Positions 6,498-62,021 of a stretch of 64,000 nt of DNA are shown piece after piece. The DNA comes from Aquificota bacterium (GTDB lineage Bacteria; Aquificota; Aquificia; Desulfurobacteriales; DQVG01). A program made the translations under genes and the position numbers. Each line of letters opens with the position of its first letter. Within the stretch, counting starts at the first letter, position 1. The notes below the pieces were generated by a model, which worked only from the letters and a program-made list of their open reading frames with translations, was not told the DNA's origin and ran no database searches. The stretch is taken from assembly GCA_027002265.1 (NCBI GenBank), contig JAMOTM010000043.1:14458-78457 (forward strand), in the 5' to 3' direction.

Positions 6498-7554
6498 CCT
6501 CTTTCTTATCTTGAGCTATATTTTCTCTTTTATCATCTTCCACAAATTCCTTAAATTTTCCAAAAACAATTCTACCTGCGGAGGTTTGCAAAATATTTGT
6601 TACTTCTATTTTAACTTTTTTCCCAATTTTATCTCCAGCATTGTCCACTATTACCATAGTTCCATCATTTAGATATCCAATAGCTTGATTTTTATCTTTT
6701 CCTCTTTTCACTAAAGAAATTATTAGATCTTCTCCAACAACAAAATTTGGTTTTAAAGCATTTATTAAATCATTTAAATTTAAAGTTTCTATCCCTTTTA
6801 TCTGAGCAAGTTGAATAAGATTATAGTCCATAGTTAAAAGCTTAGCATCAAATTTTCTTGCAAGTTCTAAAAGTTTTTCATCCGTTTTTCTTAAATAAGG
6901 TATATCTCTTTCATATATATCTACCAAAAGAGCTTTTTTTTCATTTGACAGTTTTAAAAGCTCTTTTACAGCTTCTAAACCTCGTCTTCCTTTGTTTCGA
7001 ATAACTGGATCATGGGTATCTGCTATAAATTGTAGTTCTTCTAAAACAAAACGAGGAATTATAAATTTCCCTTCTAAAAATCCGGTTTTCAAAACATCTA
7101 CAATTCTATAGTCTATTAAAGTTGAAGTATCTATAACCTTTGTAGGAATGCATTCTTCTTTATCCTCTCTAAAAAGAGATGAAAAGCTTCTTTTTTTCAA
7201 ACTTTCGACAAATAAAATACCAAATAAAATGGGAAATATACCAAATGTTAAAGCATTTACAAAAAATAGCTCTTCTTGGATAGGAAAGAATAAAATATTT
7301 ATTATTACATATATTAAATAAGCAAATAAAACTCCTAAGGAAAATCCAAAGATAAAATGAATAAAGTCTTTTATAAATATTTTTTTAGAAAAAATAAAGT
7401 AGTAAAGCAAAAATGCAGCTGTCGTAGAAAAAGTAGATATTAAAAAAGCTTGTAAATAATCAAATCCATAACTTACAAGTCCCAAAAAGGACAACCAAAA
7501 TATTAAAATAAATGCTGGATTTATAATTCTTGGTTTAATAAATCTTATTTTCAT
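6475..7554 (-). CDS. membrane-anchored PIN + TRAM domain protein (YacL-like)
   Basis: Four N-terminal TM helices, then a PIN-like 'VIDTSTLIDYRI...', then a C-terminal TRAM-like beta domain. Confidence 0.75.
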   Translation of the reverse strand: MKIRFIKPRIINPAFILIFWLSFLGLVSYGFDYLQAFLISTFSTTAAFLLYYFIFSKKIFIKDFIHFIFGFSLGVLFAYLIYVIINILFFPIQEELFFVNALTFGIFPILFGILFVESLKKRSFSSLFREDKEECIPTKVIDTSTLIDYRIVDVLKTGFLEGKFIIPRFVLEELQFIADTHDPVIRNKGRRGLEAVKELLKLSNEKKALLVDIYERDIPYLRKTDEKLLELARKFDAKLLTMDYNLIQLAQIKGIETLNLNDLINALKPNFVVGEDLIISLVKRGKDKNQAIGYLNDGTMVIVDNAGDKIGKKVKIEVTNILQTSAGRIVFGKFKEFVEDDKRENIAQDKKEDVSSEGK

Positions 7555-7599
7555 TTTTTTCTCCTAAAAAATAAAATATCACTTTCTAATACATCAAAT

Positions 7600-8196
7600 C
7601 TACTCTGCGGGGTATCCCACAGGCATAATATAAAGAGGATGTTCTTTTATATCTAAAATTATCTTAATAAGCTCATCTATAAAGGCTCCAATAGCTACTG
7701 TTCCAAGCTTTAAATATGTAGCCATTAGATATATATTTTGGGAAATATGTCCTGCTTCCATTAAAACATACCTAATTCCTCGTTTTCCATATTTTGACAT
7801 AGTTATTCCAAAGTTTGCTGTAATTATAAAGTTTAAAGGAGCATCCATAATAAAATCTTGATTTAATGCAGCTTGAACTAGCTCTGGCAAAATATTTTTT
7901 GAAAATAAAAATTTTAAACTATGGTTTTCAGGCATATATAAAAAAAGGGCATTTTCTAAATCTTTATACCTTTTTAAAAATAAATAAATTCTCATAGGAT
8001 ATAAAGCTCCGGCTGAAGGTACAGTTTTGTATCCAAAGGGGTTTCTAAGTCCATAAGCCGCAAAGCAGAGCTTTGAAATTTCGTTTTCACTTAATGGATT
8101 TGAAAGATAGCTTCTAATTGAACGTCTTTTAAATAATAGCTCTTCAAAGGAAAAAGAAAGCTTTTCTATTTCAATTTCCGGAAGTTTAAAAATCAT
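7600..8196 (-). CDS. SagB-type / nitroreductase-family dehydrogenase
   Basis: 'RRSIRSY' nitroreductase N-motif and the 'PSAGALYP' SagB-type hallmark. Confidence 0.7.
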   Translation of the reverse strand: MIFKLPEIEIEKLSFSFEELLFKRRSIRSYLSNPLSENEISKLCFAAYGLRNPFGYKTVPSAGALYPMRIYLFLKRYKDLENALFLYMPENHSLKFLFSKNILPELVQAALNQDFIMDAPLNFIITANFGITMSKYGKRGIRYVLMEAGHISQNIYLMATYLKLGTVAIGAFIDELIKIILDIKEHPLYIMPVGYPAE

Positions 8197-9011
8197 AATT
8201 TATCCTTTATTAGTTTTTTTGAAAATTTTTTCTCATTATATAAATTTAGGTCATCATTACTCGCAAGGGAATCGGTTCCAAGGAAAATTGGAATGTTGTA
8301 TTTTTTAAAAAGATCAAAAGGGGGTTTTCCTACATTTAGATAGTAATTGCTTCTTGGACATAAAATAACTTTTGCTCCTGTCTTTTTAATTAAATAAGCT
8401 TCTTTTTCCGTAATATGAACACAGTGGACTAAATACGTTTTTGGAGATAAAACCCCAAGTTCATATAAATATTCAATAGGCCTTTTTTCTGGAGGAGTAA
8501 AGTTTCCAAGAACTCCTATATTTTTAAAAAGTTCGTACATAGAATTTTTCTTCCCTAAAAGAAAATCAACTTCCTCTTTACTTTCGGCGGCATGAATTTT
8601 GAATATAGGAGTATTTTTGTAAATAAGCTTTATATATTTTGGATTCACGCTATAGGGAGCATGAGCTGAAAGATAAAAATTATATTTTTTTGCTATTTTT
8701 ATATACTTTTCAAATCTTAATTTTGCAATATTTTCATCTAATCCAATAAATTCAAAAAAATTTTTTATATTGGGTCTTTTTAAAATTTTTAAAATTTTCT
8801 CATTCTCGGTAAAGGTTTGTATATTCCAAAAGTAATAATCTTTGTATTCCTTTAAAATTTTTTTTATAGATAAAATTCTTAGCTCATCTTTTACCAAAAA
8901 TTTAAAAGAAATTATTTTTTTCAACCAAGATACAAAGTCTTTTTCACGAGGTCTATTTAAATATTTAAAGTAAGAAAATTCAAGATGGGTATGGTAGTTA
9001 ATAGGTTTCAT
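8193..9011 (-). CDS. metal-dependent amidohydrolase-family protein (short form)
   Basis: 'YHTHLE' HxH metal motif, later His residues and 'GTDSLASN' aspartate motif. 4-nt overlap with the downstream gene. Confidence 0.6.
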   Translation of the reverse strand: MKPINYHTHLEFSYFKYLNRPREKDFVSWLKKIISFKFLVKDELRILSIKKILKEYKDYYFWNIQTFTENEKILKILKRPNIKNFFEFIGLDENIAKLRFEKYIKIAKKYNFYLSAHAPYSVNPKYIKLIYKNTPIFKIHAAESKEEVDFLLGKKNSMYELFKNIGVLGNFTPPEKRPIEYLYELGVLSPKTYLVHCVHITEKEAYLIKKTGAKVILCPRSNYYLNVGKPPFDLFKKYNIPIFLGTDSLASNDDLNLYNEKKFSKKLIKDKL

Positions 9012-9014
9012 CTT

Positions 9015-9380
9015 TTACCTCTTTTCAAATAATTTAAGGATTTTAGCAAGCTTATTAAGATCCTTTTTATCTAAGCTAATAACGATTTTATTATACCTTT
9101 CATTTGTAAGCTCAAAAACCGCTATATCTTTATTTGGATACATGCACCAAAATTCTTTTTTATTATTTTTTACAGAGAAAAAAATTCCTATTATGAGTAA
9201 ATTAAATATACGTACGCCTGATGCTTTAAATAATGGATATTTTAACTTAGATGGATTTAAAATAATGTTTTTGATATTTTTGATGGGAAATTCTATTGGT
9301 TTAAAGTTTAAAGATAGAATCTTTTCAAGTTTACTTAATTTTATTTGAATTTTGTCCTTTTTTATATCTAACTTTGCCAT
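9015..9380 (-). CDS. hypothetical protein, 121 aa
   Basis: ORF at the head of a same-strand gene run. No recognisable motifs. Confidence 0.45.
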   Translation of the reverse strand: MAKLDIKKDKIQIKLSKLEKILSLNFKPIEFPIKNIKNIILNPSKLKYPLFKASGVRIFNLLIIGIFFSVKNNKKEFWCMYPNKDIAVFELTNERYNKIVISLDKKDLNKLAKILKLFEKR

Positions 9381-9450
9381 TTTATATTTTAATCTTTAGA
9401 AACACTTCAATGTTAAAATATTTTACAAAAATTTTTTGGAGGTATTAAAC

Positions 9451-10815
9451 TTGAAAGTGGAAAAAAGTAAAAAACTTTTTGAAGAAGCCAAAAAATATAT
9501 TCCAGGTGGGGTAAATTCTCCAGTTAGAGCTTTTAAAGCTGTTGAGGATATTCCGCGTTTTATTGAAAAAGGGGAAGGTGCATATATTTACGATGTGGAT
9601 GGAAACAAATATATTGATTATGTAATGTCCTGGGGACCTTTAATTTTAGGTCATGCTCCTAAAAAAGTTATTAAAGCTGTTGTTGAGCAGGCAAAAAAGG
9701 GAACTTCTTATGGGGCTCCAACTAAGCTCGAGGTAGAAATTGCAAAATTTATATGTGAGCATGTTCCGGGAGTAGAAAAAGTTAGAATGGTAAACTCCGG
9801 AACAGAAGCTACTATGAGTGCAATTCGTCTGGCAAGAGGGTATACTGGAAGAAAAAAAATTATAAAATTTGAAGGATGTTACCATGGGCATGTAGATTCC
9901 CTACTTGTAAAAGCAGGGTCTGGACTAGCAACTTTTGGAAAACCATCCTCTCCAGGTATCCCCGAAGAGCTTGCAGCTCTTACTATTACTTTACCATTTA
10001 ATGACATAAATACCTTTAAAAAAGCTATTTTGGAACATAAAGGAGAAATTGCCTGTGTTATTTTAGAACCCGTTATGGCAAATGCAGGGCTAATTATGCC
10101 CACAAAAGAATTTTTAAAAGGGCTTAGGGAAATTACTGCTCAAGAAAATATTATTCTTATCTTTGATGAAGTTATTACTGGATTTAGACTTTCTTTAGGT
10201 GGAGCTCAAGAGTATTTTGGAATTACTCCCGACCTTTCTACCTTTGGAAAAGTTATAGGGGGAGGTCTGCCGGTAGGGGCTTTTGGAGGGAAAAAAGAAA
10301 TTATGGATTATTTATCTCCAGAGGGTCCTGTATATCAAGCTGGAACTTTATCCGGAAATCCTCTTGCTATGGCGGCTGGTCTTACAACTTTAAAGCTTTT
10401 AAAAGATGGTAAAGTTCAAAAACTTCAAGATGGAAGTACTATAGTTGACTTTTTTAAGGATGGAGAAGGAGTTTATGATTATTTAAGAAAAATGGGAAAA
10501 GCTTTTGCAGAAGCTATAGATGCTGCTAGAAGAGAAACTGGTATGGATAAATATACAAGGGCTTATAACTTAGAAAGCTTAAATTGTCTTTTCTTTGTAG
10601 ATAAAGATATTAAAAACTTTAAAGATGTTTCCAAAGCTAATACTAAAGCTTATGCTCTCTTTTTCAGAGAAATGTTAAAAGAAGGAATCTATTTAGCACC
10701 CTCTCAATTTGAAGTAGCCTTTGTATCTACAGCTCATACAGAAAAGGAAATAGAAAGAACTTATCAAGCTGCCCTTAAAGCTTTAAGAAGAGTTAAGGAG
10801 GAATTTTATAGTTAA
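9451..10815 (+). CDS. hemL: glutamate-1-semialdehyde 2,1-aminomutase
   Basis: 'IPGGVNSPVRAF' and a class-III aminotransferase core with 'FGKVIGGGLPVGAFGG'. GGAGG at 9438-9442 favours the TTG at 9451 over the track start at 9436. Confidence 0.9.
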   Translation: MKVEKSKKLFEEAKKYIPGGVNSPVRAFKAVEDIPRFIEKGEGAYIYDVDGNKYIDYVMSWGPLILGHAPKKVIKAVVEQAKKGTSYGAPTKLEVEIAKFICEHVPGVEKVRMVNSGTEATMSAIRLARGYTGRKKIIKFEGCYHGHVDSLLVKAGSGLATFGKPSSPGIPEELAALTITLPFNDINTFKKAILEHKGEIACVILEPVMANAGLIMPTKEFLKGLREITAQENIILIFDEVITGFRLSLGGAQEYFGITPDLSTFGKVIGGGLPVGAFGGKKEIMDYLSPEGPVYQAGTLSGNPLAMAAGLTTLKLLKDGKVQKLQDGSTIVDFFKDGEGVYDYLRKMGKAFAEAIDAARRETGMDKYTRAYNLESLNCLFFVDKDIKNFKDVSKANTKAYALFFREMLKEGIYLAPSQFEVAFVSTAHTEKEIERTYQAALKALRRVKEEFYS

Positions 10816-11045
10816 TGCTTAAACTTTTGTTTTCTAAAGATAAAGAAAAAAGAAAAACTTTTTTTAAGGTTCTCGAGGTTACTTCAAGTATTACGAGTTT
10901 TGCTTTTGCAGTTTTAATTGGTTTTGTAATAGGATATTATTTAGATGAATACTTTCATACTTCTCCCCTTCTTACCTTGATTTTTGGAATCTTTGGAATC
11001 GTTGCGGGAGTTAAAAATATCTTAGAAGACCTAAAAAAATTTTGA
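10815..11045 (+). CDS. AtpZ/AtpI-like small membrane protein of the F-ATPase operon
   Basis: 76 aa with two TM helices, directly upstream of atpB. Confidence 0.6.
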   Translation: MLKLLFSKDKEKRKTFFKVLEVTSSITSFAFAVLIGFVIGYYLDEYFHTSPLLTLIFGIFGIVAGVKNILEDLKKF

Positions 11046-11081
11046 TATAATTTACTAGATTTTTTTGACGGGGGAAAAGTA

Positions 11082-11804
11082 ATGCAAGAGCATGGGTTAG
11101 TAATATTTCATATACCTGGAATTCCAGATTTTATAACTAATACTTGGGTAGTTATGGCAATTATTTTATTTGTAGCTTATAAACTTTCTCAAAACTTAGA
11201 TTTATTTCCAAAAAATAAATTTCTTCTAGCTATTGAATCTCTTTATAAATTTTTTAAGGATTTACTAAATCAAACTTTAGGAAAGGAGAAAGCTAAAAAA
11301 TTTTTACCTTACTTCTTTGCTTTATTTATTTTTATTTTATGTATGAATCTTTGGGGACTTATTCCAGGGGCTGTTCAACCCACCTCTAATATTAATACCA
11401 CTTTAGCTTTAGCTATTTTATCTTTTATTCTTTATCATGCTTCTGGTATCAAATTTCAAGGAATTATTAACTATATAAAACACTTTTTAAGTGGACCAAA
11501 ATGGCTTATTCCTCTTATGTTACCAGTAGAAATAATTTCTCACTTTGCAAGAATCATCTCTCTTTCTTTCCGGCTTTTTGGAAACATGTTTGGAGATGAA
11601 ATGATAGTATTAATTCTCTTTACTATATTCCCACTTGTTTTACCTCTTTTAGGTATGCTTATTGTATTTGGTAACTCATTTTTACAAGCATTTATTTTTG
11701 TAATGCTTTCTATAATTTATGTAGCTCTTGCAGTTCACCACCATCATGAAGAAAAAGAAAAAGAAAAAGAAAAGGAAAATGTGCCGGATATAGACTTAGC
11801 TTAA
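11082..11804 (+). CDS. atpB: F0F1 ATP synthase subunit a
   Basis: Conserved 'SLSFRLFGNMFGDE' (essential Arg helix), five TM helices, followed by atpE. Unusual HHHH-(EK)n C-terminal tail. Confidence 0.9.
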   Translation: MQEHGLVIFHIPGIPDFITNTWVVMAIILFVAYKLSQNLDLFPKNKFLLAIESLYKFFKDLLNQTLGKEKAKKFLPYFFALFIFILCMNLWGLIPGAVQPTSNINTTLALAILSFILYHASGIKFQGIINYIKHFLSGPKWLIPLMLPVEIISHFARIISLSFRLFGNMFGDEMIVLILFTIFPLVLPLLGMLIVFGNSFLQAFIFVMLSIIYVALAVHHHHEEKEKEKEKENVPDIDLA

Positions 11805-26695: not shown

Positions 26696-26787
<92 letters not shown>

Positions 26788-26793
26788 AAAAAA

Positions 26794-26886
26794 TGGCGGA
26801 GGGACTGGGATTCGAACCCAGGGGCGGGCGACTAACCCGCCAGGTGATTTCAAATCACCCGCCTTCGACCGCTCGGCCATCCCTCC
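26794..26886 (-). tRNA. tRNA-Ser (anticodon UGA), CCA encoded
   Basis: Acceptor GGAGGGA/TCCCTCC, anticodon loop TTTGAAA, long variable arm, T-loop TTCGAAT. Sits 6 nt from the other tRNA-Ser. Confidence 0.9.
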
Positions 26887-26921: not shown

Positions 26922-27066
26922 GAATTAAAATTATTTATTCCCCAAATAGATACGCAGATATTACCCAGTTTAATAATGTAAAGAAAAAAATTATCCTTCT
27001 AAAATATTAAATTGGCACGGAGAAAAAATTAAAGAAGTAGTTCTAAAAAGAAGGATAGTATTAATA

Positions 27067-28371
27067 ATTTCTATACCGTAACGGTTTAAAGTAGAAGAAA
27101 AACAAGATATAGCAAGAAGATTGAAAGATTAGTTTCCATACCGTAACGGTCTTATTTAAAGGAGAAATATATCACAGATTACGAAATTATTAGTAGAGAG
27201 TTTCCATACCGTAACGGTCTTATTTAAAGAGGATTTTCGTTAATCCTGAATTCAACTGTCTTTACAGTTTCCATACCGTAACGGTCTTATTTAAAGGAAT
27301 AATATGCTTTATTATCATTTGTAATAAAAATACGAGTTTCCATACCGTAACGGTCTTATTTAAAGAACATTAGAAAAAAATAAAAGTAAGGGGGTAAGAA
27401 AGTTTCCATACCGTAACGGTCTTATTTAAAGATATAGGAATAGTTGTTTTGGTTGTAGGATTGATTTAGTTTCCATACCGTAACGGTCTTATTTAAAGGA
27501 CAGCAATGCTTATTTGTTCTTCCCTAAAAGAATTTGTTTCCATACCGTAACGGTCTTATTTAAAGGAGAAATATATCACAGATTACGAAATTATTAGTAG
27601 AGAGTTTCCATACCGTAACGGTCTTATTTAAAGCTTGCATATTTCCTTACCAAAGCATCAATTCCCAATTCGTTTCCATACCGTAACGGTCTTATTTAAA
27701 GGAGAAATATATCACAGATTACGAAATTATTAGTAGAGAGTTTCCATACCGTAACGGTCTTATTTAAAGTTATGAAGTTGTTGTTGTGATACAGAAGAGA
27801 TTGTTGTTTCCATACCGTAACGGTCTTATTTAAAGGGAAATCAATTATTTTATAAATAATTCTCCAGATAGAGTTTCCATACCGTAACGGTCTTATTTAA
27901 AGAAGTAATAAAAACTGAAAAGGGGGTGTGAAATGTTTGTTTCCATACCGTAACGGTCTTATTTAAAGGTTGGGGGGCTATGAGGAACTCAGATTACACT
28001 TTTAAAGTTTCCATACCGTAACGGTCTTATTTAAAGTTTGAAAATGAACGAATAAAATTGAAGTGGTTGTTGAAGGTTTCCATACCGTAACGGTCTTATT
28101 TAAAGTTTATTAAATTTCCATTTATACTTATTGCTAAAGTTAAGTTTCCATACCGTAACGGTCTTATTTAAAGAACTTTAATATACGCTTGTGCAAGAAA
28201 ATCATTATTGTTTCCATACCGTAACGGTCTTATTTAAAGAATGAGATAAATTTGCAATAAAATGAGTTTATCAACGTTTCCATACCGTAACGGTCTTATT
28301 TAAAGTGAAGAGAATATTTTAGAAATTGAAATGAAATAAAAGTTTCCATACCGTAACGGTCTTATTTAAAG
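27067..28371 (-). CRISPR. CRISPR array: 19 identical 30-nt repeats, one degenerate terminal repeat (27067-27091) and 19 spacers of 36-40 nt
   Basis: Plus-strand repeat GTTTCCATACCGTAACGGTCTTATTTAAAG was read at 19 positions. On the minus strand it ends ...TATGGAAAC. The degenerate repeat is at the left end and the promoter-bearing AT-rich leader at the right, so minus-strand transcription is inferred. Confidence 0.95.
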
Positions 28372-28451
28372 GAGAGAGCTAAAATCTTGAAGGCCAACGG
28401 TATTCGTAATGTCAAAAATCAAAAAACAGCTTCAAAGGCCACTTAAATTTA

Positions 28452-40128: not shown

Positions 40129-40311
40129 CTAAAATATTCCATAGATCTTATGAAGAATATGTATAAGCTCTAGAGTATGTAAATTTATTAAAATAAATTC
40201 AAAAATCAAGAATATAGCATATAAAAAAATTAAAATAAAAAGCCATTTTCCTATAAAACCTTTTGCTTTTTTCTCAAGTTCTTCAAAAGAAAGTTTACAA
40301 ATTAAAGACAT
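40129..40311 (-). CDS. small membrane protein (60 aa), last gene of the cytochrome operon
   Basis: GGGGGA RBS just upstream of the ATG. One central TM helix. Same strand, 24 nt after the preceding small ORF. Confidence 0.35.
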   Translation of the reverse strand: MSLICKLSFEELEKKAKGFIGKWLFILIFLYAIFLIFEFILINLHTLELIHILHKIYGIF

Positions 40312-40335
40312 TTTATCCCCCCTAATTTTTTAAAT

Positions 40336-40509
40336 TTAGAACCATTGCAGCTTGGAATGAGCAATAAAAATAACAAGTTTAACAAACCATACTAAAAATA
40401 GTGGTCCTACTAAAAGTAAAGTAGTTAAGGCTAATATAATCCAACCTTCAAATTCTATTTCGTACCAAAAAACTTCTTTAGGCTTTGGTTTAAATTCCTT
40501 TTTTGTCAA
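40336..40509 (-). CDS. small membrane protein (57 aa, TTG start), not in the supplied ORF track
   Basis: Hand translation gives (M)TKKEFKPKPKEVFWYEIEFEGWIILALTTLLLVGPLFLVWFVKLVIFIAHSKLQWF*. GGGAGG lies 6 nt upstream of the TTG, 22 nt after the 13-heme cytochrome stop. Confidence 0.3.
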   Translation of the reverse strand: MTKKEFKPKPKEVFWYEIEFEGWIILALTTLLLVGPLFLVWFVKLVIFIAHSKLQWF

Positions 40510-40531
40510 TTTTTGCCTCCCTATATAAAAC

Positions 40532-41626
40532 TTATAATTTATTTTTATATTTTGGATAGGTTAAATCTTTATAAGGGGAATTATGAATAATATGACATTT
40601 TAAGCAATTTTTTTTGTCTTTTAAGTTTTTATGACTGCCCCACAAAATCGGTTTATGACAATAAATACAAATTTCAGGAGCTTTTGCATATAGCATATTT
40701 TTTTTGTTTAAGTGGGGATTATGACAAATAGTACAATCCATAGGGTGAGTATATTTATTTTTAGCAAATACTCCCACATCTTTTGCCTTTCTTCCATTAT
40801 GACAAACAAGACAAGTTTTTGCATGCTTAGAATAATGTAGATTTTTCTTTGGAATATAAATATTAGGACTGTATTTAATTAAAAATTCACTTTTTGCAAA
40901 GTGGGGTGTATGACAATTTTCACAGGATTTGTGAGGAGTTTTTAAAACTTCTTTTTCTTCTTTATGACATTTAGAGCAAAATAAACCATAAGTTTTTGTT
41001 GGAATTAAAGACTTACTTAAAGCTCTATGCATTTTGTGACAATTTAAACATCCAATATCTGGATGAGAATTTTTATCTTTTTTTATATCTATATGACATT
41101 TATAACAATGTTTAGATTTATTTCTTTTAAAAGAAAGACAATTTTTATCTTTTGGTCTGTGCATATCATGACAGTTTAAACAATTAATCTTCATTTTTTT
41201 CTTTCTTAAATTCAATTTTCCAACAGGATGGTTAAAAAGTATAAGATTTTTTGAAAAATATTTTCTTTTATATTTTTCTTTATGACAAGAAGCACATGTA
41301 TTTTCTTTTACTTTAAAAGCAAATTTCTTTTTAGAACCTTCTTTGGTATGAGGATTATGGCAATTTCCACAGTTTACTTTATTATTTATGGGATGTCCTA
41401 TCTTATGATATATATTATAAAAAATATCCCTATCATCTAAAATTAGACCATTGTGACAAGAGTAGCACATTTCTAAACTAGATGCAGATACATTTTCTCC
41501 TACTAAAATATAAGGCAACTTACTTTTCTCTTTAGATATAAAATTTTTTACATGACATTTATAGCAATCTTGCGCTAAGGAAAAAGATAATAATATAAAT
41601 GTTAAAAATATAAATTTTCCCAACAT
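40532..41626 (-). CDS. periplasmic multiheme c-type cytochrome, 13 CxxCH motifs in 364 aa
   Basis: Signal peptide. Counted CYKCH, CYSCH, CGNCH, CASCH, CLNCH, CYKCH, CLNCH, CSKCH, CENCH, CLVCH, CTICH, CIYCH, CLKCH, many as CxxCHxxH. The ATG shares its A with the upstream TAA stop. Confidence 0.85.
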   Translation of the reverse strand: MLGKFIFLTFILLSFSLAQDCYKCHVKNFISKEKSKLPYILVGENVSASSLEMCYSCHNGLILDDRDIFYNIYHKIGHPINNKVNCGNCHNPHTKEGSKKKFAFKVKENTCASCHKEKYKRKYFSKNLILFNHPVGKLNLRKKKMKINCLNCHDMHRPKDKNCLSFKRNKSKHCYKCHIDIKKDKNSHPDIGCLNCHKMHRALSKSLIPTKTYGLFCSKCHKEEKEVLKTPHKSCENCHTPHFAKSEFLIKYSPNIYIPKKNLHYSKHAKTCLVCHNGRKAKDVGVFAKNKYTHPMDCTICHNPHLNKKNMLYAKAPEICIYCHKPILWGSHKNLKDKKNCLKCHIIHNSPYKDLTYPKYKNKL

Positions 41627-42390
41627 TATCTTTCTACCTCATTCTTTTTTCTTATTACAAGGGTAGGTTTTAAAGAATCTAAAACATAAATATTATTCTT
41701 ATCTACTTTTAAGCCCAAGGGATTTTTTATATTTGAAAAATAACCCACATAAGAACCTGCTTTTGTAAAAACAACAACTTTTTTAAAAATGGGATCTGCA
41801 ACATATATGTAATTTTTATCAACATCTATGCCTGTAGGTCTAAAAAGTTTACCTTTTGTAATTCCAAAATCTCCAAAAAAGTAAGTTAATTTTCCATTAA
41901 AATCGATTAAATAGATTTTTGCATTATTTACATCTACAAGATATATATAACTATTATCTTTTGTTAAAAAACCTAATTTGGAATTAAAATTAATAGATTT
42001 TCTCTCTTTTCCATCTAGAGAGTATGCTTTTAAGTATCCATTTTTTAAGCTTGTCCAAATAAGATTTTTCACCTTAACAAGGTCTATAGGAGAAGCTTTT
42101 AGATTTATGACTCTTTCTATTTTTCCCTTTAGATTTAATATATATATTTTTTTATCTTTTGGAGAAGTAAGGTAAATCTTGTTGTCTTCTACATATATTC
42201 CATAAGGTTTAAATTTTAATTTAATTTTATTTTTAGGTTTTAAAGTATTTTTATTTAAAACTAAAATTTCCTGCTTTAATCCATCTACTATATATATACT
42301 ATTTTTATATATAGAAAGATCTGAAGGCGTTTTTAAATTAAGATTTACAGTTTCTCCCAAGGCAAATAAACCTAGTAAAAATATAAGCAT
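41626..42390 (-). CDS. NHL-repeat beta-propeller protein (secreted)
   Basis: Short signal peptide. About six repeats of the 'P.GI.VD.NYIYV.D...KI.V(F/L)' type, e.g. 'FRPTGIDVDKNYIYVADPIFKKVVVF'. Confidence 0.75.
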   Translation of the reverse strand: MLIFLLGLFALGETVNLNLKTPSDLSIYKNSIYIVDGLKQEILVLNKNTLKPKNKIKLKFKPYGIYVEDNKIYLTSPKDKKIYILNLKGKIERVINLKASPIDLVKVKNLIWTSLKNGYLKAYSLDGKERKSINFNSKLGFLTKDNSYIYLVDVNNAKIYLIDFNGKLTYFFGDFGITKGKLFRPTGIDVDKNYIYVADPIFKKVVVFTKAGSYVGYFSNIKNPLGLKVDKNNIYVLDSLKPTLVIRKKNEVER

Positions 42391-42400
42391 TTATGCCCCC

Positions 42401-43144
42401 TTATTTTATAAACTCTGGAAAGTAAATTTTTTTTCCTTTTATAAGAGCTTTTATAATTACGTCTTTTCCTTTGATTTCCTCTATACGCTCTTTACTAAAT
42501 CCAAGAGCTTTTAGATCTAAAGGTGGTTTTGGAGATAAATGACAATCTTTACAAGAGTAAATACCTTCTTTTACAACATATCCATGAAGCTTAGATGTAA
42601 AAAGAGGATCTTTTTTATCTATTTTATCTTTTACAAGCTTATAAGGAATATCTAAAGGTTTCCCGTTAACTAAAGGTCCTATCCTTGCATCATCAAACTC
42701 GCCAGATAGAACAATTTCATTTCCGTATTTAATATAAGTAGTTCCATATCTATCTGGTCCTCCAGAAACGGGATAAATTTTTTTTCCCTTTATTTTTATC
42801 CAAGAGTATGAGGAGGCTCCAATTTTTACATGACAGACTGTACATGTTAAAAAACCAGCATGCATATTTAAAAAAGCAGCATATTTTCCTTTTTTATGAG
42901 GATAAGCAGTATGGCATTTTGTGCAGACATCTCCATAAAAAACTTTGTTATAGGTATTTTCTATATGAAAAGGTAGAGGATATTTATTTTTATTTATTTT
43001 TGGAGTTTTAAACTTTTTTAATTTTTCCTTCCAAGTTTTAATGTTTCCTTGAAAATCGCTATTTTTTATATACTCTAAAAGAACTTGGGAAAAGGCTAAA
43101 TTAGAAACTATATAAAAAGCAAAAATATATTTTAATTTTGACAT
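42401..43144 (-). CDS. triheme c-type cytochrome (3 CxxCH), signal-anchored
   Basis: CTKCH, CTVCH and CKDCH counted. N-terminal hydrophobic segment. 13-nt overlap with the upstream gene. Confidence 0.75.
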   Translation of the reverse strand: MSKLKYIFAFYIVSNLAFSQVLLEYIKNSDFQGNIKTWKEKLKKFKTPKINKNKYPLPFHIENTYNKVFYGDVCTKCHTAYPHKKGKYAAFLNMHAGFLTCTVCHVKIGASSYSWIKIKGKKIYPVSGGPDRYGTTYIKYGNEIVLSGEFDDARIGPLVNGKPLDIPYKLVKDKIDKKDPLFTSKLHGYVVKEGIYSCKDCHLSPKPPLDLKALGFSKERIEEIKGKDVIIKALIKGKKIYFPEFIK

Positions 43145-44097
43145 TCTACTTCCCTCCTTCTTTCATAAAGCTCTTTGTTTATTTGTCTTTCTATTTCGTG
43201 GGCTTTATGAATGATTTTTAAAATTTGCTCTTCCACGGGTAGTTTCTCTATAGATTTAATAAATTCATATCTTTCTTTTAAAAAGGGATATTTTTCTAAA
43301 AATTCTGGGCATTCTTCTCCTAATTTTTTTATAATTTTTCTATAAAGTCTTGGTTTTTCTTCCATAAGCTCTACTTCATTGAAAGTTCCAGTAAGCCATA
43401 CCCAGTCCATAGGAAATTTTGAAGGTCCAAAATGAGCAAAATATAAATGAACTAATCCCAACCAACCTAAAGCTACAAAAGCTTCATCTGTGTGAGCAAG
43501 ATAAGCTACAGAAATCGCCCAATTGGGAAAATGAAGGTAATGAGTAAAAAATTCCGGAAACCATAAAATGAAACCGGTAACTCCAATAGCAAACATACCC
43601 CAACCAACTGCAAAAAAATCAAATTTATCTATCCATATAAATTCATCAAAATCAGGTGGTGCTTTTCTAATCCCAAGGTAGTAAGTTACCTGGTGGTAAA
43701 TATCTATAGCATCCTTTAATCTTGGAAGCATAGGAAGTGCATCAAATACCCCAATTTTTTTTATTCTATCTGTATTAAGAATGATTAAAAGGGTGCAGTA
43801 AAATACTGTAACTAGAAAAGTAAGAAACATAATAAGCCCGTATACTCTGTGAATAGTCATTGCTCCAAAAGTTCCACCCATAAGATAGTAAAGAGGTTTA
43901 GCCCAGGAAGCATCCGAATACTTTAAAGGAAAACCCGTTAAAATTTGATAAGCTACAGTAACAAATATAAATACATGCAATATTCTATGGAAGATGTTAA
44001 ATTTTCTATAAGCCAAATACTTCCCATCTACAATTAAAGTTTTTTCAACTTCATCTTTAAGCCTTAAATTTTCTTTTAATTTAGATAAAATTCCCAT
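43132..44097 (-). CDS. integral membrane di-heme cytochrome b-like subunit (FdnI / Ni-Fe-hydrogenase cytochrome b type) with ~90-aa cytoplasmic helical tail
   Basis: Four TM helices carry conserved His residues ('FHRILHV', 'IHRVYG', 'AHTDEA', 'HLYFAH'), as in PF01292-type quinone-interacting b subunits. Confidence 0.7.
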   Translation of the reverse strand: MGILSKLKENLRLKDEVEKTLIVDGKYLAYRKFNIFHRILHVFIFVTVAYQILTGFPLKYSDASWAKPLYYLMGGTFGAMTIHRVYGLIMFLTFLVTVFYCTLLIILNTDRIKKIGVFDALPMLPRLKDAIDIYHQVTYYLGIRKAPPDFDEFIWIDKFDFFAVGWGMFAIGVTGFILWFPEFFTHYLHFPNWAISVAYLAHTDEAFVALGWLGLVHLYFAHFGPSKFPMDWVWLTGTFNEVELMEEKPRLYRKIIKKLGEECPEFLEKYPFLKERYEFIKSIEKLPVEEQILKIIHKAHEIERQINKELYERRREVECQN

Positions 44098-44109
44098 TTA
44101 TAAAACCTC

Positions 44110-45219
44110 CTAATCCTCCTTATCCTTCTTTCTATTTCTTATTTCCCTAAATAAAGATAAAAATACAATTCCAGCTCCCATTAGAAGAACAGATGCTGCC
44201 ATGTAAAACATTCCATGTTCTACTCCAAAAACTATAGCTTGAACTACAGGATTTTCATATTTAAATACAGCTGGATCCATATGAACCCATTTAGTTGTTG
44301 CAAAATTTTTATCATTCCATTTAGCTACGAGGGGATGACATTCATCGCTTCTTCCACAAGTTTTAGGCAAAACATTTGGATTAGTAGAAGAACGTTCATC
44401 TATAGTTTCAAAAATATCGTGAAAGTTACCATTTGCATGGGTATGACAGTCTAAACAATCTGCAGCTCTTTTATCTTTAGGATAGAGTTTAAGCATTTTT
44501 CCATGCATAGTATTAAGATAAGCTTTTACAGCTTCAAGAATTTTTTCTTTTCTTTCTTCATCTTTTATTTGCATAACATTTATTGCTTTTTCCATTTTCC
44601 TTTTATCTGCGTGACAAGAAGCACAAAGTTTTACGATTTCCCATCCATTTCTTTGTATACCAGCTTTATAACCAAAGGCAAAACCATTTTTTTCAATAGG
44701 AATTTCACTTCTAGAAAGAACATGGGCATATGCAATTTTTAGATCGTAATTATTGGTGTGGCATATAGAACATTTAGCTAAAGATTTTTTTGCACTATTT
44801 AATTTTTCTAAATCTATAAGCTCTTTGTTTATATGGCAGTAAGAACAAGAAGGAAAAATGTCTGGAGCTTTATCGTAGTATTTTCCGTGGACCGACTCTT
44901 TCCAAGTTTTTACAATATTTTCATGCGAAAAAAACTTTTTAGATATAGGATCTATAACATGGCATTTTGAAGAGCAAGTTGCTTTTACGTTTTTAGGGTC
45001 GTGAGGATAAGCTTTTATTTTTGTATGACATTCTGAGCAATCCGCGTCCCTATGAACGGAATGTAAAAATTTTATGGAAGATATATCACAGAGAATAATA
45101 GTGTTGTTTTGAATGTAACCTAAATTTCTATACTTATGGCACATTAAACATCCATCTTTTGCTAAACTGAAAGATATAGCTAGTTCAAAAACAAAAAGGC
45201 TTTTTATAAAACTCTTCAC
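44110..45219 (-). CDS. multiheme c-type cytochrome with C-terminal TM anchor (6 CxxCH plus CSSKCH and CGRSDECH variants)
   Basis: Signal peptide. CLMCH, CSECH, CSYCH, CSICH, CASCH, CLDCH counted. C-terminal 'MFYMAASVLLMGAGIVFLSLF' helix. Confidence 0.8.
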   Translation of the reverse strand: MKSFIKSLFVFELAISFSLAKDGCLMCHKYRNLGYIQNNTIILCDISSIKFLHSVHRDADCSECHTKIKAYPHDPKNVKATCSSKCHVIDPISKKFFSHENIVKTWKESVHGKYYDKAPDIFPSCSYCHINKELIDLEKLNSAKKSLAKCSICHTNNYDLKIAYAHVLSRSEIPIEKNGFAFGYKAGIQRNGWEIVKLCASCHADKRKMEKAINVMQIKDEERKEKILEAVKAYLNTMHGKMLKLYPKDKRAADCLDCHTHANGNFHDIFETIDERSSTNPNVLPKTCGRSDECHPLVAKWNDKNFATTKWVHMDPAVFKYENPVVQAIVFGVEHGMFYMAASVLLMGAGIVFLSLFREIRNRKKDKED

Positions 45220-45223
45220 GCTA

Positions 45224-45574
45224 TTAACCTCCTAGGTTTACAAGTTTTAAAATAAGTCCTACAAGCGTATATCCAAATGCAAAACCCATGCATAATGTAA
45301 AAGTCATTCCAAAAGATCTTAAAGCCCAACCTAGAGATTTATATTCATAGTAATATCTAGAGTAATAGGTGATAAGCAATGCTACTATTATTCCACTTAT
45401 AAACTTTATCCAAAAATAGGAGCTATCTACGGCTTTTGATTGAGTTAAACCAGCTAAAAACACAAAACCCGCAACTGATAAAGCTCCTAAACCTACTATA
45501 AACATTAAAGGAGCTGCCCAAGCGTCGTCCCTTAACACTCGATTTGGAGGTATTGGATGTTTTAACTTTTTCAT
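45224..45574 (-). CDS. small integral membrane protein (3 TM), first gene of the cytochrome operon
   Basis: Three hydrophobic helices. 4-nt gap to the next gene. No family recognised. Confidence 0.55.
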   Translation of the reverse strand: MKKLKHPIPPNRVLRDDAWAAPLMFIVGLGALSVAGFVFLAGLTQSKAVDSSYFWIKFISGIIVALLITYYSRYYYEYKSLGWALRSFGMTFTLCMGFAFGYTLVGLILKLVNLGG

Positions 45575-45857
45575 GATAATACCCTCTCATTTAACAAAAG
45601 TTTTAAAACTACTAAATTTTTTAAAAAAGTATATTTTTATCAAGATAAATTTTATTTTACAATTTATTTTGGAATTTTCAATTTTTAATTATATTATTTA
45701 TCATCGTTTTGAATTATTTGAATATATAAATTATATTAACTTCTCCTAGGTAGGGAATATAAGATAAAATTCTGGATTTTTAAGTAAGATGTATAGATAT
45801 TGAAAATAAAAGGTTTATAATAATTGATGCAAAATATTTTAAATGAGAAAGGAGAGG

Positions 45858-54812: not shown

Positions 54813-55898
54813 TTAGCTTTTTTTAAAAATAAAATATCCTAAGGTTTTATTATCTCTTTTTATTAATATTTTTGTAGCTTTACTTATCTTAAAAATTTCA
54901 TGATTTAGATTATGTTTCTCCAAAACTGGATAATATCCATCTTCTTCCCCATATATATTTTCTATTGATAATTTTTTAGCATAAATTATTTTTCGATTTA
55001 ATTTAGAAAGCTTATATTTTCTTGTAAATTTCTCATCTACTTTTAAAATAATTTCGGGATCTTCCTTAAATTTTATATTTTCATATAAGAGATGTTTTAA
55101 ATTTTTAAAACTTTCTTTAAATTCAATTCCAAAAAATTTGCAAAAAGCATAGAACATATAAAAATGGTATAAAGCTTTTTGATAGGAACTTTTTAAATTT
55201 TTTGATACCTCAAAACACCATGCAGGTCTATTTGCAAAAACCAAAGAGTAATATGTTAAGGTTTTTCGCATATCTTTATATGGGGTATTTCTCCAAAAAG
55301 TGTGAGTATTTTTAATTCCAAATTTATGATATTTTGGAACAAATTTATTTACAAATTTTTCAACAAATTTTGCAACCTTATAAAGCTCAAAATGTTTATA
55401 TTTAACTTCATCTATAACTATACACTCTCCCCAATATCTTTTATTGCGTTTGTAAAAGCCATATCCATCATGCAAAGATAAAACAAGATCTATATCTTTT
55501 CTATGAAGATACTTTTTTAAATATTTTAAAAATCTATAATCCGGATCAGAAGGGGAAACATAGGGAAATTTTCGATTCATATCTCCATTATATCCTCTAA
55601 CGTAAGCTAAAATAGAGACAAAGTTTTGTCGAGGAATAACTGTAATTTTTCCTCTTTTTAAAGAAATATGTTTTAAAAATCTGGCAAAATAGTAGCTTCC
55701 CTCTTCATTCCCATGAATACCTGCAACAACTAAAATATGTTTCCCTTTTTTTTTTCCTTCTATTTCGTAGGAGTAATACTTCTTTTTCGGAAGCTTAATG
55801 ATGCCTTGGGAAGAAGAATTTTTTGCGTAAGCAACTTCAAGAAAAAATGGCAAAGTTATTATTTTTCTAATAAAATCTCTTCGGCTAATATTTTCCAT
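54813..55898 (-). CDS. Tat-exported M14-like zinc carboxypeptidase (succinylglutamate desuccinylase / Csd4-Pgp1-like)
   Basis: Twin-arginine leader 'SRRDFIRKI' and 'VVAGIHGNEEGS' HxxE zinc motif. Confidence 0.6.
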   Translation of the reverse strand: MENISRRDFIRKIITLPFFLEVAYAKNSSSQGIIKLPKKKYYSYEIEGKKKGKHILVVAGIHGNEEGSYYFARFLKHISLKRGKITVIPRQNFVSILAYVRGYNGDMNRKFPYVSPSDPDYRFLKYLKKYLHRKDIDLVLSLHDGYGFYKRNKRYWGECIVIDEVKYKHFELYKVAKFVEKFVNKFVPKYHKFGIKNTHTFWRNTPYKDMRKTLTYYSLVFANRPAWCFEVSKNLKSSYQKALYHFYMFYAFCKFFGIEFKESFKNLKHLLYENIKFKEDPEIILKVDEKFTRKYKLSKLNRKIIYAKKLSIENIYGEEDGYYPVLEKHNLNHEIFKISKATKILIKRDNKTLGYFIFKKS

Positions 55899-58447: not shown

Positions 58448-59695
58448 ATGAAAAAGTTTTTGAGCTTAGCTTTACTACTTTCCTTTTTATCTTCTAACAC
58501 CCTAGCTTTCGCATCTTCTATTTCTCAAAACAATCAAGTTATAAAAAAATCCACTTTAGAAGCTAAATTAAAAGAAGCTGAAGAGTTATACGAAAAGCTT
58601 GAGTTTGACAAAGCTTTAAAAATTTTAAAAGAATTAGAAAAACAGTATCCTAATAATCCAAAAGTTTTATTTTTACTAGGAAAAGTTCTTTATGATTTAG
58701 GAAACTATGGAGAAGCAACTAAATATTTTGAAAAGCTTATAAAAATTAATCCTAATAATAGTGAATATTATTTCTGGGCTGCAAAAGCATACTTAAAGTT
58801 AGGTAATTTGGATAAAGCATTATTGTATGTCAAACATGCTTTGAAATTAAAGGAAGATGCAAGATATTATAATCTTTTAGGTTTAATTTATGTTGCAAAA
58901 GGAGATTTAAAAAAAGCTGAAGAAGCTTATAAAAAAGCTATAAAATTAAATCCTGAATTTGCGGATGCATACTATAACTTAGGTGTTTTATACCTTTTAC
59001 AAGGAAAGCAAAATTTAGCTGAAAAATATTTTAAAAAAGCTATAGCTTTAGCTCCTAAAAAGGCTCTTTATCACTTAAAACTTGCTGAGCTTTATAAAAA
59101 ACAAGGTCGTTTAAAGGAAGCTATAGAGCAACTCCTTGAGGCTTTAAAATATCAAGAAGCTACAGCTTTGGCTTATTTAAATATAGCTTTAACCTATTAT
59201 CAAAACAAAGAGTATGACAAAGCTTTAGAGTATGCCCAAAAAGCTCTTTTATTAAATCCAGAGTACTATGAAGCTTATATTCTTATAGGAAATATTTATG
59301 AAAAAAAACATATGTACGACTTAGCGGAAATGGCTTATAAAACTGCTCTTCAAATTGCCACTTCTCAAGGAGATAAACTTAAGATTTTTGATGCAGGCGT
59401 TTTACTCGGATCTCTCTATTATAAAATGGGACTTTGGGACGCTTCTGTAGTAACTTTTAAATCTTTAATTCCAATAAATCCAAAAGCTCCTATAATTTAC
59501 TATTATCTTTCTTTAAATTATGAAAAGTTAGGATTTGAAAAAGCTGCCGAAGCTGAAAAGGAAACTTTAGAGGCTTTACTAAGGGAGCTTCGTCAAGAAA
59601 AGCTTCATGCAAAAACTCAAGAAGAAAAAAATGAAAAGCAAAACTTAATAGATAAAATAGAAAACTTTTTAGAAAAGCTAAAAGAAAAATTTTAG
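58448..59695 (+). CDS. secreted TPR-repeat protein
   Basis: Signal peptide followed by about eight or more TPR units ('AYYNLGVLYLLQGK...A...F.KAI.L.P'). Confidence 0.8.
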   Translation: MKKFLSLALLLSFLSSNTLAFASSISQNNQVIKKSTLEAKLKEAEELYEKLEFDKALKILKELEKQYPNNPKVLFLLGKVLYDLGNYGEATKYFEKLIKINPNNSEYYFWAAKAYLKLGNLDKALLYVKHALKLKEDARYYNLLGLIYVAKGDLKKAEEAYKKAIKLNPEFADAYYNLGVLYLLQGKQNLAEKYFKKAIALAPKKALYHLKLAELYKKQGRLKEAIEQLLEALKYQEATALAYLNIALTYYQNKEYDKALEYAQKALLLNPEYYEAYILIGNIYEKKHMYDLAEMAYKTALQIATSQGDKLKIFDAGVLLGSLYYKMGLWDASVVTFKSLIPINPKAPIIYYYLSLNYEKLGFEKAAEAEKETLEALLRELRQEKLHAKTQEEKNEKQNLIDKIENFLEKLKEKF

Positions 59696-61688: not shown

Positions 61689-61765
61689 GCCGGCGTAGCT
61701 CAGCTGGCTAGAGCGGGTGACTTGTAATCACCAGGTCGGGGGTTCGAGTCCCTCCGCCGGCACCA
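61689..61765 (+). tRNA. tRNA-Thr (anticodon UGU), CCA encoded
   Basis: Hand-folded: acceptor GCCGGCG/CGCCGGC, D-arm GCTC..GAGC, anticodon loop CTTGTAA, T-loop TTCGAGT. Confidence 0.9.
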
Positions 61766-61773
61766 TTTGAAGC

Positions 61774-61802
61774 TTGACAATAGGGGCAGATTGATATATA
61801 AT
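61774..61802 (+). promoter_or_regulatory. candidate sigma70-type promoter (TTGACA-17-TATAAT) between tRNA-Thr and tRNA-Tyr
   Basis: Both hexamers are perfect consensus with a 17-nt spacer, about 50 nt upstream of tRNA-Tyr. Confidence 0.45.
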
Positions 61803-61854
61803 ATAAGTAGCGCAAGGGAGTGAAAGCTCCCTTAGAATTGCGTGGAGCTTAGAA

Positions 61855-61941
61855 GGAGGGGTAGCCAAGCGGCCAAAGGCAGGGGACTGTAAATCCCCGG
61901 GCTCCACGCCTTCGCAGGTTCGAATCCTGCCCCCTCCACCA
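61855..61941 (+). tRNA. tRNA-Tyr (anticodon GUA), CCA encoded
   Basis: Acceptor GGAGGGG/CCCCTCC, anticodon loop CTGTAAA, long variable arm, T-loop TTCGAAT. Confidence 0.9.
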
Positions 61942-61945
61942 GTGA

Positions 61946-62021
61946 GCGGGCGTAGCTCAGTTGGTAGAGCAGCGGCCTTCCAAGCCGCTGGTCGCGGGTT
62001 CGAGTCCCGTCGCCCGCTCCA
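61946..62021 (+). tRNA. tRNA-Gly (anticodon UCC), CCA encoded
   Basis: Acceptor GCGGGCG/CGCCCGC, anticodon loop CTTCCAA, T-loop TTCGAGT. Confidence 0.9.

Follow-up and report, generated by a model that had tools for sequence, protein, structure and literature searches.

The DNA analyzed here (the window) is a stretch of 64,000 nucleotides (nt) from an Aquificota bacterium. Its minus strand carries, from position 45574 down to 40129, eight consecutive open reading frames (ORFs), g1 to g8, that encode multiheme cytochromes c, a cytochrome b, an NHL beta-propeller and small membrane proteins. Four of the products, the octaheme cytochrome g2, the triheme cytochrome g4, the propeller g5 and the 13-heme cytochrome g6, recur as a set in other bacteria, in some of which the propeller and the large cytochrome are fused and the membrane partner has been replaced. 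As a tentative overall reading, which may well fail in one of its parts, g2-g4-g5-g6 would be an undescribed, phyla-spanning electron-transfer cassette that plugs into interchangeable quinone-pool subunits, with the NHL propeller as obligate structural partner of the large cytochrome. The porin and the lipoprotein cytochromes found in relatives would have been shed in the window lineage, leaving a periplasm-terminating reductase or an uptake loop in a vent thermophile. The elements that are new here are the recognition of g2-g4-g5-g6 as a conserved unit, its swapped membrane partner and the NHL::cytochrome fusion.

The cassette was found in two kinds of locus. In Type I loci the order g2-g3-g4-g5-g6-g7 is kept in four or five contigs of metagenome-assembled genomes (MAGs) of Desulfurobacteriaceae/Thermovibrio (L004-L008), at about 30-53% identity. 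The Desulfurobacteriaceae MAGs are the nearest relatives of the operon. Genes in these and in all other fetched relative loci were called with a simple ORF finder. Type II loci were sampled in three annotated contigs, one of them labeled Methylococcales, and in nine distinct informative metagenome contigs. Their genes stand in a fixed order: an iron-sulfur protein of the Fer4_5 (NapH-like) type with five transmembrane (TM) segments, a g2-like octaheme cytochrome, a g4-like triheme cytochrome and a protein of about 890 residues. The g2-like octahemes carry a C-terminal TM segment and match the g2 profile with E-values of 1e-45 to 1e-55. The protein of about 890 residues consists of an N-terminal NHL propeller, which passes the Pfam model with 37.3 bits against a cut-off of 20, fused to a g6-like 14-heme cytochrome. 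The homologues of g4 form a small family, with 25-30% identity; in every case they are flanked by a g2-like gene on one side and by an NHL/multiheme gene on the other. Outside the two types of locus, the nearest relatives of g5, in Thermodesulfobacteriota MAGs, again have a multiheme cytochrome on either side (order 4-heme, NHL, 11-heme).

Because the gene order is fixed across the Type I and Type II loci, g2, g4, g5 and g6 appear to constitute one conserved functional unit. The fusion in Type II is Rosetta-stone evidence for g5 and g6 working together, and it makes direct binding between the two very likely. The quinone-interacting partner, by comparison of the same loci, is exchangeable: Type I loci have a cytochrome b in this role, Type II loci a NapH-like protein. 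Seven of the Type II contigs (L090, positions 5578-11497, L091, L092, L093, L096, L103 and L104) are of gammaproteobacterial type, with 36-44% G+C. Upstream of the Type II genes there are cytochromes with seven, eight and six hemes, a 427-residue secreted protein and a protein of about 900 residues with a faint MtrC-like match.

Literature searches found no description of the four-part cassette, its NHL fusion or the exchange of its quinone module, and none of a NapH-like/octaheme/triheme/NHL-multiheme cluster. Related gene sets have been reported in two organisms, which were compared here by gene order and domain types. The clusters DFE_0448-0451 and DFE_0461-0465 of Desulfovibrio ferrophilus IS5 combine multiheme cytochromes with NHL propellers, like g4-g5-g6, and these propellers were proposed to stabilize the cytochrome complex (PMC5815863). 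However, the same operons contain no quinone-pool subunit, and the proteins were found in outer-membrane fractions. Mutants of D. ferrophilus have been constructed as a test of these cytochrome/NHL clusters (PMC9769857). In the Uet cluster of Candidatus Tenderia electrophaga, the triheme UetG, the NHL proteins UetH/I and the undecaheme UetJ have the local order of g4-g5-g6, and UetI is predicted to be six-bladed, like g5. Uet differs from the operon of the window in having a beta-barrel porin (UetC), a peptidyl-prolyl isomerase and a cupredoxin, and in having no inner-membrane quinone module.

The second component of the operon is the membrane module. By sequence, g2 and g3 together are a split homologue of the CbcL/MtrH/MtoC quinol-cytochrome family. 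The preliminary description of the window had stated that the operon matches no named respiratory module. This is only half right, as g2 and g3 belong to this family and multiheme/NHL/multiheme sets have already been described, although they are uncharacterized. The comparison with Geobacter CbcL that was made in the same description has turned out to reflect true homology: g3 is 37% identical over 250 residues to the CbcL orthologue of Geomonas propionica (E 3e-45), with g2 aligning colinearly to the part of that protein that comprises its heme domain and first TM segment (TM1). The suggested logic, in which an enzyme of the quinone pool feeds a chain of hemes in the periplasm, is likewise supported. 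No characterized complex was found to be orthologous to the whole cluster; only its first half has a characterized relative. The b domain of the family is present in g3, which passes Pfam PF01292 with 44.3 bits against a cut-off of 30.1, and the N-terminal multiheme c domain is present in g2. Instead of a single polypeptide with six TM segments there is one TM segment in g2 and four in g3, encoded by genes 12 nt apart, and the gene boundary falls exactly between TM1 and TM2 of CbcL.

The g2 protein has a signal peptide, a predicted periplasmic heme domain and one C-terminal TM segment at about residues 338-356. Seven of its eight heme sites pair with CbcL hemes 1, 2, 3, 6, 7, 8 and 9. Hemes 4 and 5 of CbcL have no counterpart in g2, and one g2 heme (Cys150) is extra. 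The CX3CH motif of g2 aligns with CbcL heme 3 and the CX5CH motif with heme 9, both of which are canonical CxxCH in CbcL. Both unusual motifs are kept in all Type I homologues, and CX3CH and CX4CH are found in Type II. Because they are kept in every close homologue, the CX3CH and CX5CH sites are very probably true heme sites, giving g2 eight hemes.

The g3 family comprises 1,544 cluster representatives at E ≤ 1e-3, and relatives of g3 occur in at least 597 species genomes from many phyla. The cytochrome b is fused to a domain with at least three CxxCH motifs in 86 of the 149 best family representatives, and the g2 profile matches c-b fusions in 63 loci. The Geobacter and Geomonas members are 616-624 residues long and have nine CxxCH motifs, behind which come the cytochrome b and one additional TM segment at the end. 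They are read as CbcL because this layout matches the published description of CbcL. One of them, a 616-residue ORF with nine CxxCH motifs from Geomonas propionica (L057), contains the legible fragments of the published CbcL alignment, in which a homologue from this species is listed. Separate c and b genes are also found in L030 and L106. The latter contig (positions 2900-9456) has a tandem of a fused CbcL-like c-b protein (714 residues), a split pair of a 657-residue multiheme protein and a 279-residue cytochrome b, and a 514-residue NapC/NirT-type protein; it thus holds three different quinone-pool cytochrome modules next to one another.

His41, His83, His202 and His217 of g3 are invariant in the family alignment. 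With the family profile they align with the four conserved histidines of E. coli FdnI (1KQF_C, E 2.2e-7), namely His18, 57, 155 and 169, which we take to be the heme-b ligands. As in FdnI-type proteins, there are four TM segments; TM1 and TM2 each bear one of the histidines, and TM4 bears the other two. Single-sequence searches of the PDB with g3 and with g2 gave no matches, and only the g3 family profile reached FdnI. The g3 protein is not an FdnI equivalog, scoring 27 bits against a TIGR01583 cut-off of 116. It differs from FdnI in having a multiheme cytochrome c as partner, whereas FdnI has a molybdenum/iron-sulfur dehydrogenase, and in its extended C-terminal tail. This soluble tail of about 80 residues takes the place of the last TM segment of CbcL (TM6) and is common to just one other 50%-identity cluster among the 1,544 relatives. 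By analogy with the topology of FdnI, it should lie on the cytoplasmic side of the membrane.

The pair formed by g2 and g3 can thus be set beside CbcL of G. sulfurreducens (GSU0274), with which it has in common the FdnI-type diheme b core and the multiheme domain with TM1. CbcL is one polypeptide, whereas the pair is two. CbcL has nine hemes, whereas g2 has eight sites, two of them with CX3CH and CX5CH spacing, and the triheme/NHL/multiheme set is co-encoded here. The family has been described from 15 phyla, a list that does not include the Aquificae, with 3-23 hemes and in fused form throughout (PMC6295460). The host lineage of the window, with Aquificota as its nearest relatives, lies outside these 15 phyla, and the literature searches yielded no paper on the family in Aquificota.

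CbcBA (Cbc5) was considered as the closest relative and rejected, since the Geobacter and Geomonas matches are nine-heme c-b fusions, that is, CbcL. As judged by its description, CbcBA of G. sulfurreducens shares the two-gene layout of a multiheme cytochrome c with a C-terminal TM segment followed by a four-TM diheme cytochrome b. Its c subunit was proposed to supply a heme-b histidine, whereas here all four heme-b histidines lie in g3 and the histidine in the C-terminal helix of g2 is not conserved. The CbcBA paper states that CbcL and CbcB share no sequence homology. The Hmc, Tmc, Nhc and Ohc complexes of Desulfovibrio have the same general logic of a periplasmic multiheme cytochrome joined to a membrane quinone-interacting subunit. 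However, there is no iron-sulfur, NrfD-type or HmcA-type subunit among g1-g8. The eight proteins have no Fer4 or NrfD matches, in agreement with the preliminary description, and the HmcA model NF045713 gave only 25 and 13 bits against a cut-off of 400.

The propeller lies between the two periplasmic cytochromes. The structure of g5 was predicted by AlphaFold2 with a mean local confidence (pLDDT) of 88.7 and a global score (pTM) of 0.87, and has 24 strands. Its best Foldseek matches in the PDB are the NHL domains of Thin, TRIM2, TRIM3 and TRIM71, with query-based similarity scores (TMq) of 0.81-0.85. The modeled g5 is a six-bladed beta-propeller of NHL repeats, which the sequence had indicated with a bare pass of the Pfam NHL model (20.8 bits against a cut-off of 20). 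The earlier observation that an NHL propeller is embedded between the cytochromes is therefore confirmed by a confident model and by structural matches. No Pfam model is passed by g4, and neither are the c7 triheme models. In an alignment of 14 g4 sequences the three CxxCH motifs and His60, His83, His95 and His187 are invariant, but the AlphaFold2 model built from this alignment (pLDDT 49) is too poor for a fold search.

The g6 cytochrome has a signal peptide and no lipobox, and it passes the Paired_CXXCH model with 107.5 bits. It corresponds to the N-terminal part of the 24-heme Desulfurobacteriaceae homologues. With 86.9 bits against the TIGR03508 cut-off of 192, it resembles the DmsE/MtrA decaheme family without being a member of it. 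A single-sequence search of the PDB gave only weak heme-motif matches to NrfA/NrfB. All heme sites of g6 are CxxCH and no catalytic-type heme motif was seen, as expected from the earlier statement that no catalytic terminal reductase is evident.

The eight genes and the other features are listed in Table 1.

Table 1. Genes g1-g8 and the region upstream of them (window coordinates), followed by the three genes that precede the g2 homologue in the related contigs L005 and L007.
Feature	Position	Strand	Description
Upstream region	45575..45842	-	268 nt, AT-rich, intergenic; presumed promoter region
g1	45224-45574	-	116 residues; three hydrophobic segments
g2	44110-45219	-	369 residues; 6 CxxCH, CSSKCH at residue 82, CGRSDECH at residue 288
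g3	43132-44097	-	321 residues; 4-TM FdnI/HydC-type diheme cytochrome b
g4	42401-43144	-	247 residues; secreted triheme cytochrome c, 3 CxxCH
g5	41626-42390	-	254 residues; secreted six-bladed NHL beta-propeller (model), no Cys, no His
g6	40532-41626	-	364 residues; secreted 13-heme cytochrome c, 13 CxxCH, 6 of the 13 being CxxCHxxH
g7	40336-40509	-	57 residues; single TM segment
g8	40129-40311	-	60 residues; single TM segment
Upstream component 1 (L005/L007)			421-residue secreted protein; no Pfam hit
Upstream component 2 (L005/L007)			201-residue seven-heme protein; lipobox
Upstream component 3 (L005/L007)			309-residue seven-heme cytochrome

The eight-gene set is a real operon under purifying selection. 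Its coordinates were reproduced from the ORFs, and a GGAGG/GGGGG-type Shine-Dalgarno sequence precedes each of the eight start codons. All eight genes are present in the same order in a congeneric contig (L085, GCA_054017155.1), in the same mnmG/ATP-synthase context. These results bear out the preliminary description of an eight-gene minus-strand operon, and reading of the ORFs confirmed the heme motifs that it gave for the cytochromes, including the CX3CH and CX5CH sites in g2. The junctions from g1 to g8 measure +4, +12, -13, +10, -1, +22 and +24 nt. The limits given earlier (+12 to -13 nt) thus hold for the first six genes and fail for the last two, while the reported shared TAATG is indeed found, at the -1 junction of g5 and g6. 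The flanking genes are of the housekeeping type, with mnmG, rsmG, mnmA and ATP synthase genes downstream and a divergent gene for a penicillin-binding (PBP)/LysM protein upstream, separated from g1 by the presumed promoter region. The minus-strand sequence that comes closest to a sigma-70 promoter lies at 45681-45654, with 10 of 12 positions matching. However, the promoter scan does not discriminate in such AT-rich DNA, with 41 sites found against 34.5 expected by chance. A terminator scan found none 3' of g8. The G+C content of the genome is about 28%, and the amino-acid composition resembles that of thermophiles.

Upon comparing the window with L085, the proteins g1 to g8 were found to be 80, 81, 86, 74, 48, 65, 69 and 67% identical. 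The proportion of nonsynonymous differences (pN) is far below that of synonymous differences (pS) in all eight genes, including the three small ones, showing that g1-g8 are genuine genes and not chance ORFs. The ratio of the corresponding rates (dN/dS) is 0.11 for g1, 0.09 for g2, 0.08 for g3, 0.17 for g4, 0.39 for g5, 0.29 for g6 and 0.25 for g7; for g8, dS is saturated, with pN of 0.20 and pS of 0.81. The values form a gradient, which is lowest in the membrane parts (0.08-0.11), rises through g4 and g6 and is highest in g5. This gradient agrees with parts that face a variable partner or environment. The g5 gene is the fastest-evolving of the operon (41626-42390 compared with L085 4797-5558). 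In the same pair of genomes mnmG and the cytochrome b are both 86% identical, against 48% for g5. The rapid divergence of g5 could be due to relaxed constraint, or to diversifying pressure on the surface where it would meet a variable partner.

Any roles of the small membrane proteins g1, g7 and g8 would be conjectural. The g1 protein belongs to no known family and is lineage-specific, and no homologue of it was found in the Desulfurobacteriaceae loci, where heme proteins occupy its position. The g7 gene is kept downstream of the large cytochrome in these loci (phmmer E 7e-8 to 2e-6), and g8 was seen only within the window's own lineage.

Three genes precede the g2 homologue in L005 (6157-8896) and L007 (6163-8896), in the place where the window has g1; g8 is an addition in the window. 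The two cytochromes among the three are homologous to cytochromes of the Type II clusters, with E-values of 1e-23 and 1e-15. The 421-residue protein has a colinear local match to the 427-residue secreted protein of Type II (E 5e-5), and its size and position suggest that it is a putative porin. With this putative porin, a heme lipoprotein and a 24-heme g6, L005 and L007 hold what looks like a candidate for a complete outer-membrane conduit in Aquificota. In the literature searched, extracellular electron transfer has not been reported from this phylum. All products of the window operon are predicted to be located in the inner membrane or to be soluble in the periplasm, and they do not make up a porin-cytochrome (Pcc/Mtr/Ext) conduit.

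Several observations weigh against the proposal, set out below, that the operon encodes a conduit from the quinone pool into the periplasm. The three upstream components of L005 and L007 have no homologue anywhere in the 64-kb window, and the operon itself encodes no porin-sized secreted protein, no lipobox cytochrome and no outer-membrane cytochrome, so that the encoded chain ends in the periplasm. The porin call is an inference: no Pfam model matches the protein, and its one local match covers 84 residues at 30% identity. The identity of the Geomonas ORF as CbcL depends on the species name and on fragments of an alignment badly read by optical character recognition. The role of cytochrome/NHL clusters of the D. 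ferrophilus type is itself unproven. Lastly, there is no cultured member of the Desulfurobacteriaceae among the best 80 genome hits, and for this reason no phenotype can be linked to the operon.

The operon probably encodes a conduit, of the type used in extracellular electron transfer, that links the quinone pool of the membrane to a periplasmic multiheme chain and would serve the respiratory export of electrons from quinol. The subunit contacts, the order of electron transfer, its direction and the acceptor given here are proposals. The two b hemes of g3, stacked across the membrane, would exchange electrons with (mena)quinol. The g2 protein would dock on g3 by its C-terminal helix, the equivalent of CbcL TM1, and carry the electrons along its eight c hemes into the periplasm, where g4 and g6 would extend the relay. 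The propeller g5 has no redox residues and for that reason would most likely be a docking scaffold that holds g6. The electrons would go to a low-potential acceptor that is extracellular or poorly soluble, for example Fe(III) or elemental sulfur (S0)/polysulfide. CbcL is required in G. sulfurreducens, the one species for which this phenotype is known, for extracellular acceptors below about -0.1 V, and the CbcL/MtrH/MtoC family is present both in Fe(III) reducers and in Fe(II) oxidizers (PMC6295460). Export from quinol is favored because of the analogy with CbcL and because of the porin and lipoprotein cytochromes beside the module in relatives. Outward respiratory flow is modestly preferred to inward flow, although sequence alone does not decide between them.

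Flow in the reverse direction is a less probable explanation, to which a real though minor weight should be given. Electrons would be taken up through low-potential hemes of g6, g4 and g2 and passed by the b hemes of g3 to menaquinone at the cytoplasmic face, building a proton-motive force as in the FdnI redox loop. Possible donors are Fe(II), minerals in reduced form and the conductive material of vent chimneys. The alignment of g3 with FdnI extends over all four heme ligands, and FdnI in formate dehydrogenase Fdn-N works inward and conserves energy. The Desulfurobacteriaceae, to which the nearest relatives of the operon belong, are vent chemolithoautotrophs. Multiheme/NHL clusters were first highlighted in the electron-uptake organisms D. 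ferrophilus and Tenderia, and the family to which g2 and g3 belong, regarded as bidirectional, includes MtoC of Fe(II) oxidizers (PMC6295460). Nothing in the sequence fixes the direction, however; the 64-kb window contains no outer-membrane conduit, and the best-characterized homologue, CbcL, works outward.

The direction of flow is not the only point on which the proposals differ. The missing porin, lipoprotein cytochrome and MtrC-like protein, together with the predicted inner-membrane or periplasmic location of all products, would also be explained if the chain terminated in the periplasm with no outer-membrane step, g6 or the unusual hemes of g2 acting as terminal reductase for a soluble or colloidal substrate such as polysulfide/S0, chelated Fe(III), other metals or oxyanions. 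Multiheme cytochromes of the c3/c7 type are able to reduce S0/polysulfide and metals in vitro, and g6 is short, with 13 hemes against 24 in its porin-linked relatives. Such a terminus is nevertheless improbable, as every site in g6 is CxxCH with no catalytic-type motif, the unusual sites of g2 pair with canonical CxxCH hemes in CbcL, and a putative porin and lipoprotein cytochromes accompany relatives of the module. It is very improbable that g5 is instead a catalytic subunit fed by the cytochromes and related in fold to SGL, arylesterase or lyase proteins. There are enzymes among six-bladed propellers, and g5 gives weak Pfam matches to SGL (E 4e-4) and Arylesterase (E 1e-3). Both of these are below the cut-offs, and g5 contains neither cysteine nor histidine. 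The invariant columns in five g5 sequences are scaffold glycine, aspartate and hydrophobic or aromatic residues, apart from one proline, one isoleucine and one lysine. Its rate of evolution is the highest in the operon, and its top structural matches are protein- or RNA-binding NHL domains.

A few other features of the window were recorded. A CRISPR-like array (clustered regularly interspaced short palindromic repeats) at 27049-28373 contains 20 copies of a direct repeat of about 30 nt (GTTTCCATACCGTAACGGTCTTATTTAAAG) at a spacing of 65-69 nt; the first copy is degenerate. Three copies of one spacer (…CGAAATTATTAGTAGAGA) are present, at 27182, 27586 and 27722. The gap that holds the array is free of genes, and the array adjoins two tRNA genes. 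There are five tRNA genes in all, the two beside the array at 26699-26886 (minus strand) and a cluster of three at 61689-62018 (plus strand); no rRNA and no Rfam family besides the tRNAs was found in the 64-kb window. Three further genes stand out, at 58448-59695 (plus strand), 54813-55898 (minus strand) and 803-2737 (minus strand). The window encodes a tetratricopeptide repeat (TPR) protein that passes the CcmH/CycH TPR model with 58.7 bits against a cut-off of 42 and may relate to cytochrome c biogenesis, a Csd4-like Peptidase_M99, which is a helical cell-shape carboxypeptidase, and a 644-residue DUF505 protein.

NHL propellers have often been noted beside the multiheme clusters of electroactive organisms; to our knowledge, no role has ever been assigned to them. 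The NHL::multiheme fusion, together with the strict gene order, leads to the testable hypothesis that the propeller docks the large cytochrome. The exchange of a cytochrome b for a NapH-like protein shows that the heme cassette of the periplasm can be separated from the quinone module, each being a building block of its own, and recognition of such modules should help to annotate the respiratory chains of uncultured bacteria. The conserved CX3CH and CX4/5CH heme-binding motifs would escape pipelines that count hemes. The CbcL family itself is extended by a split form in a deep-branching thermophile lineage.

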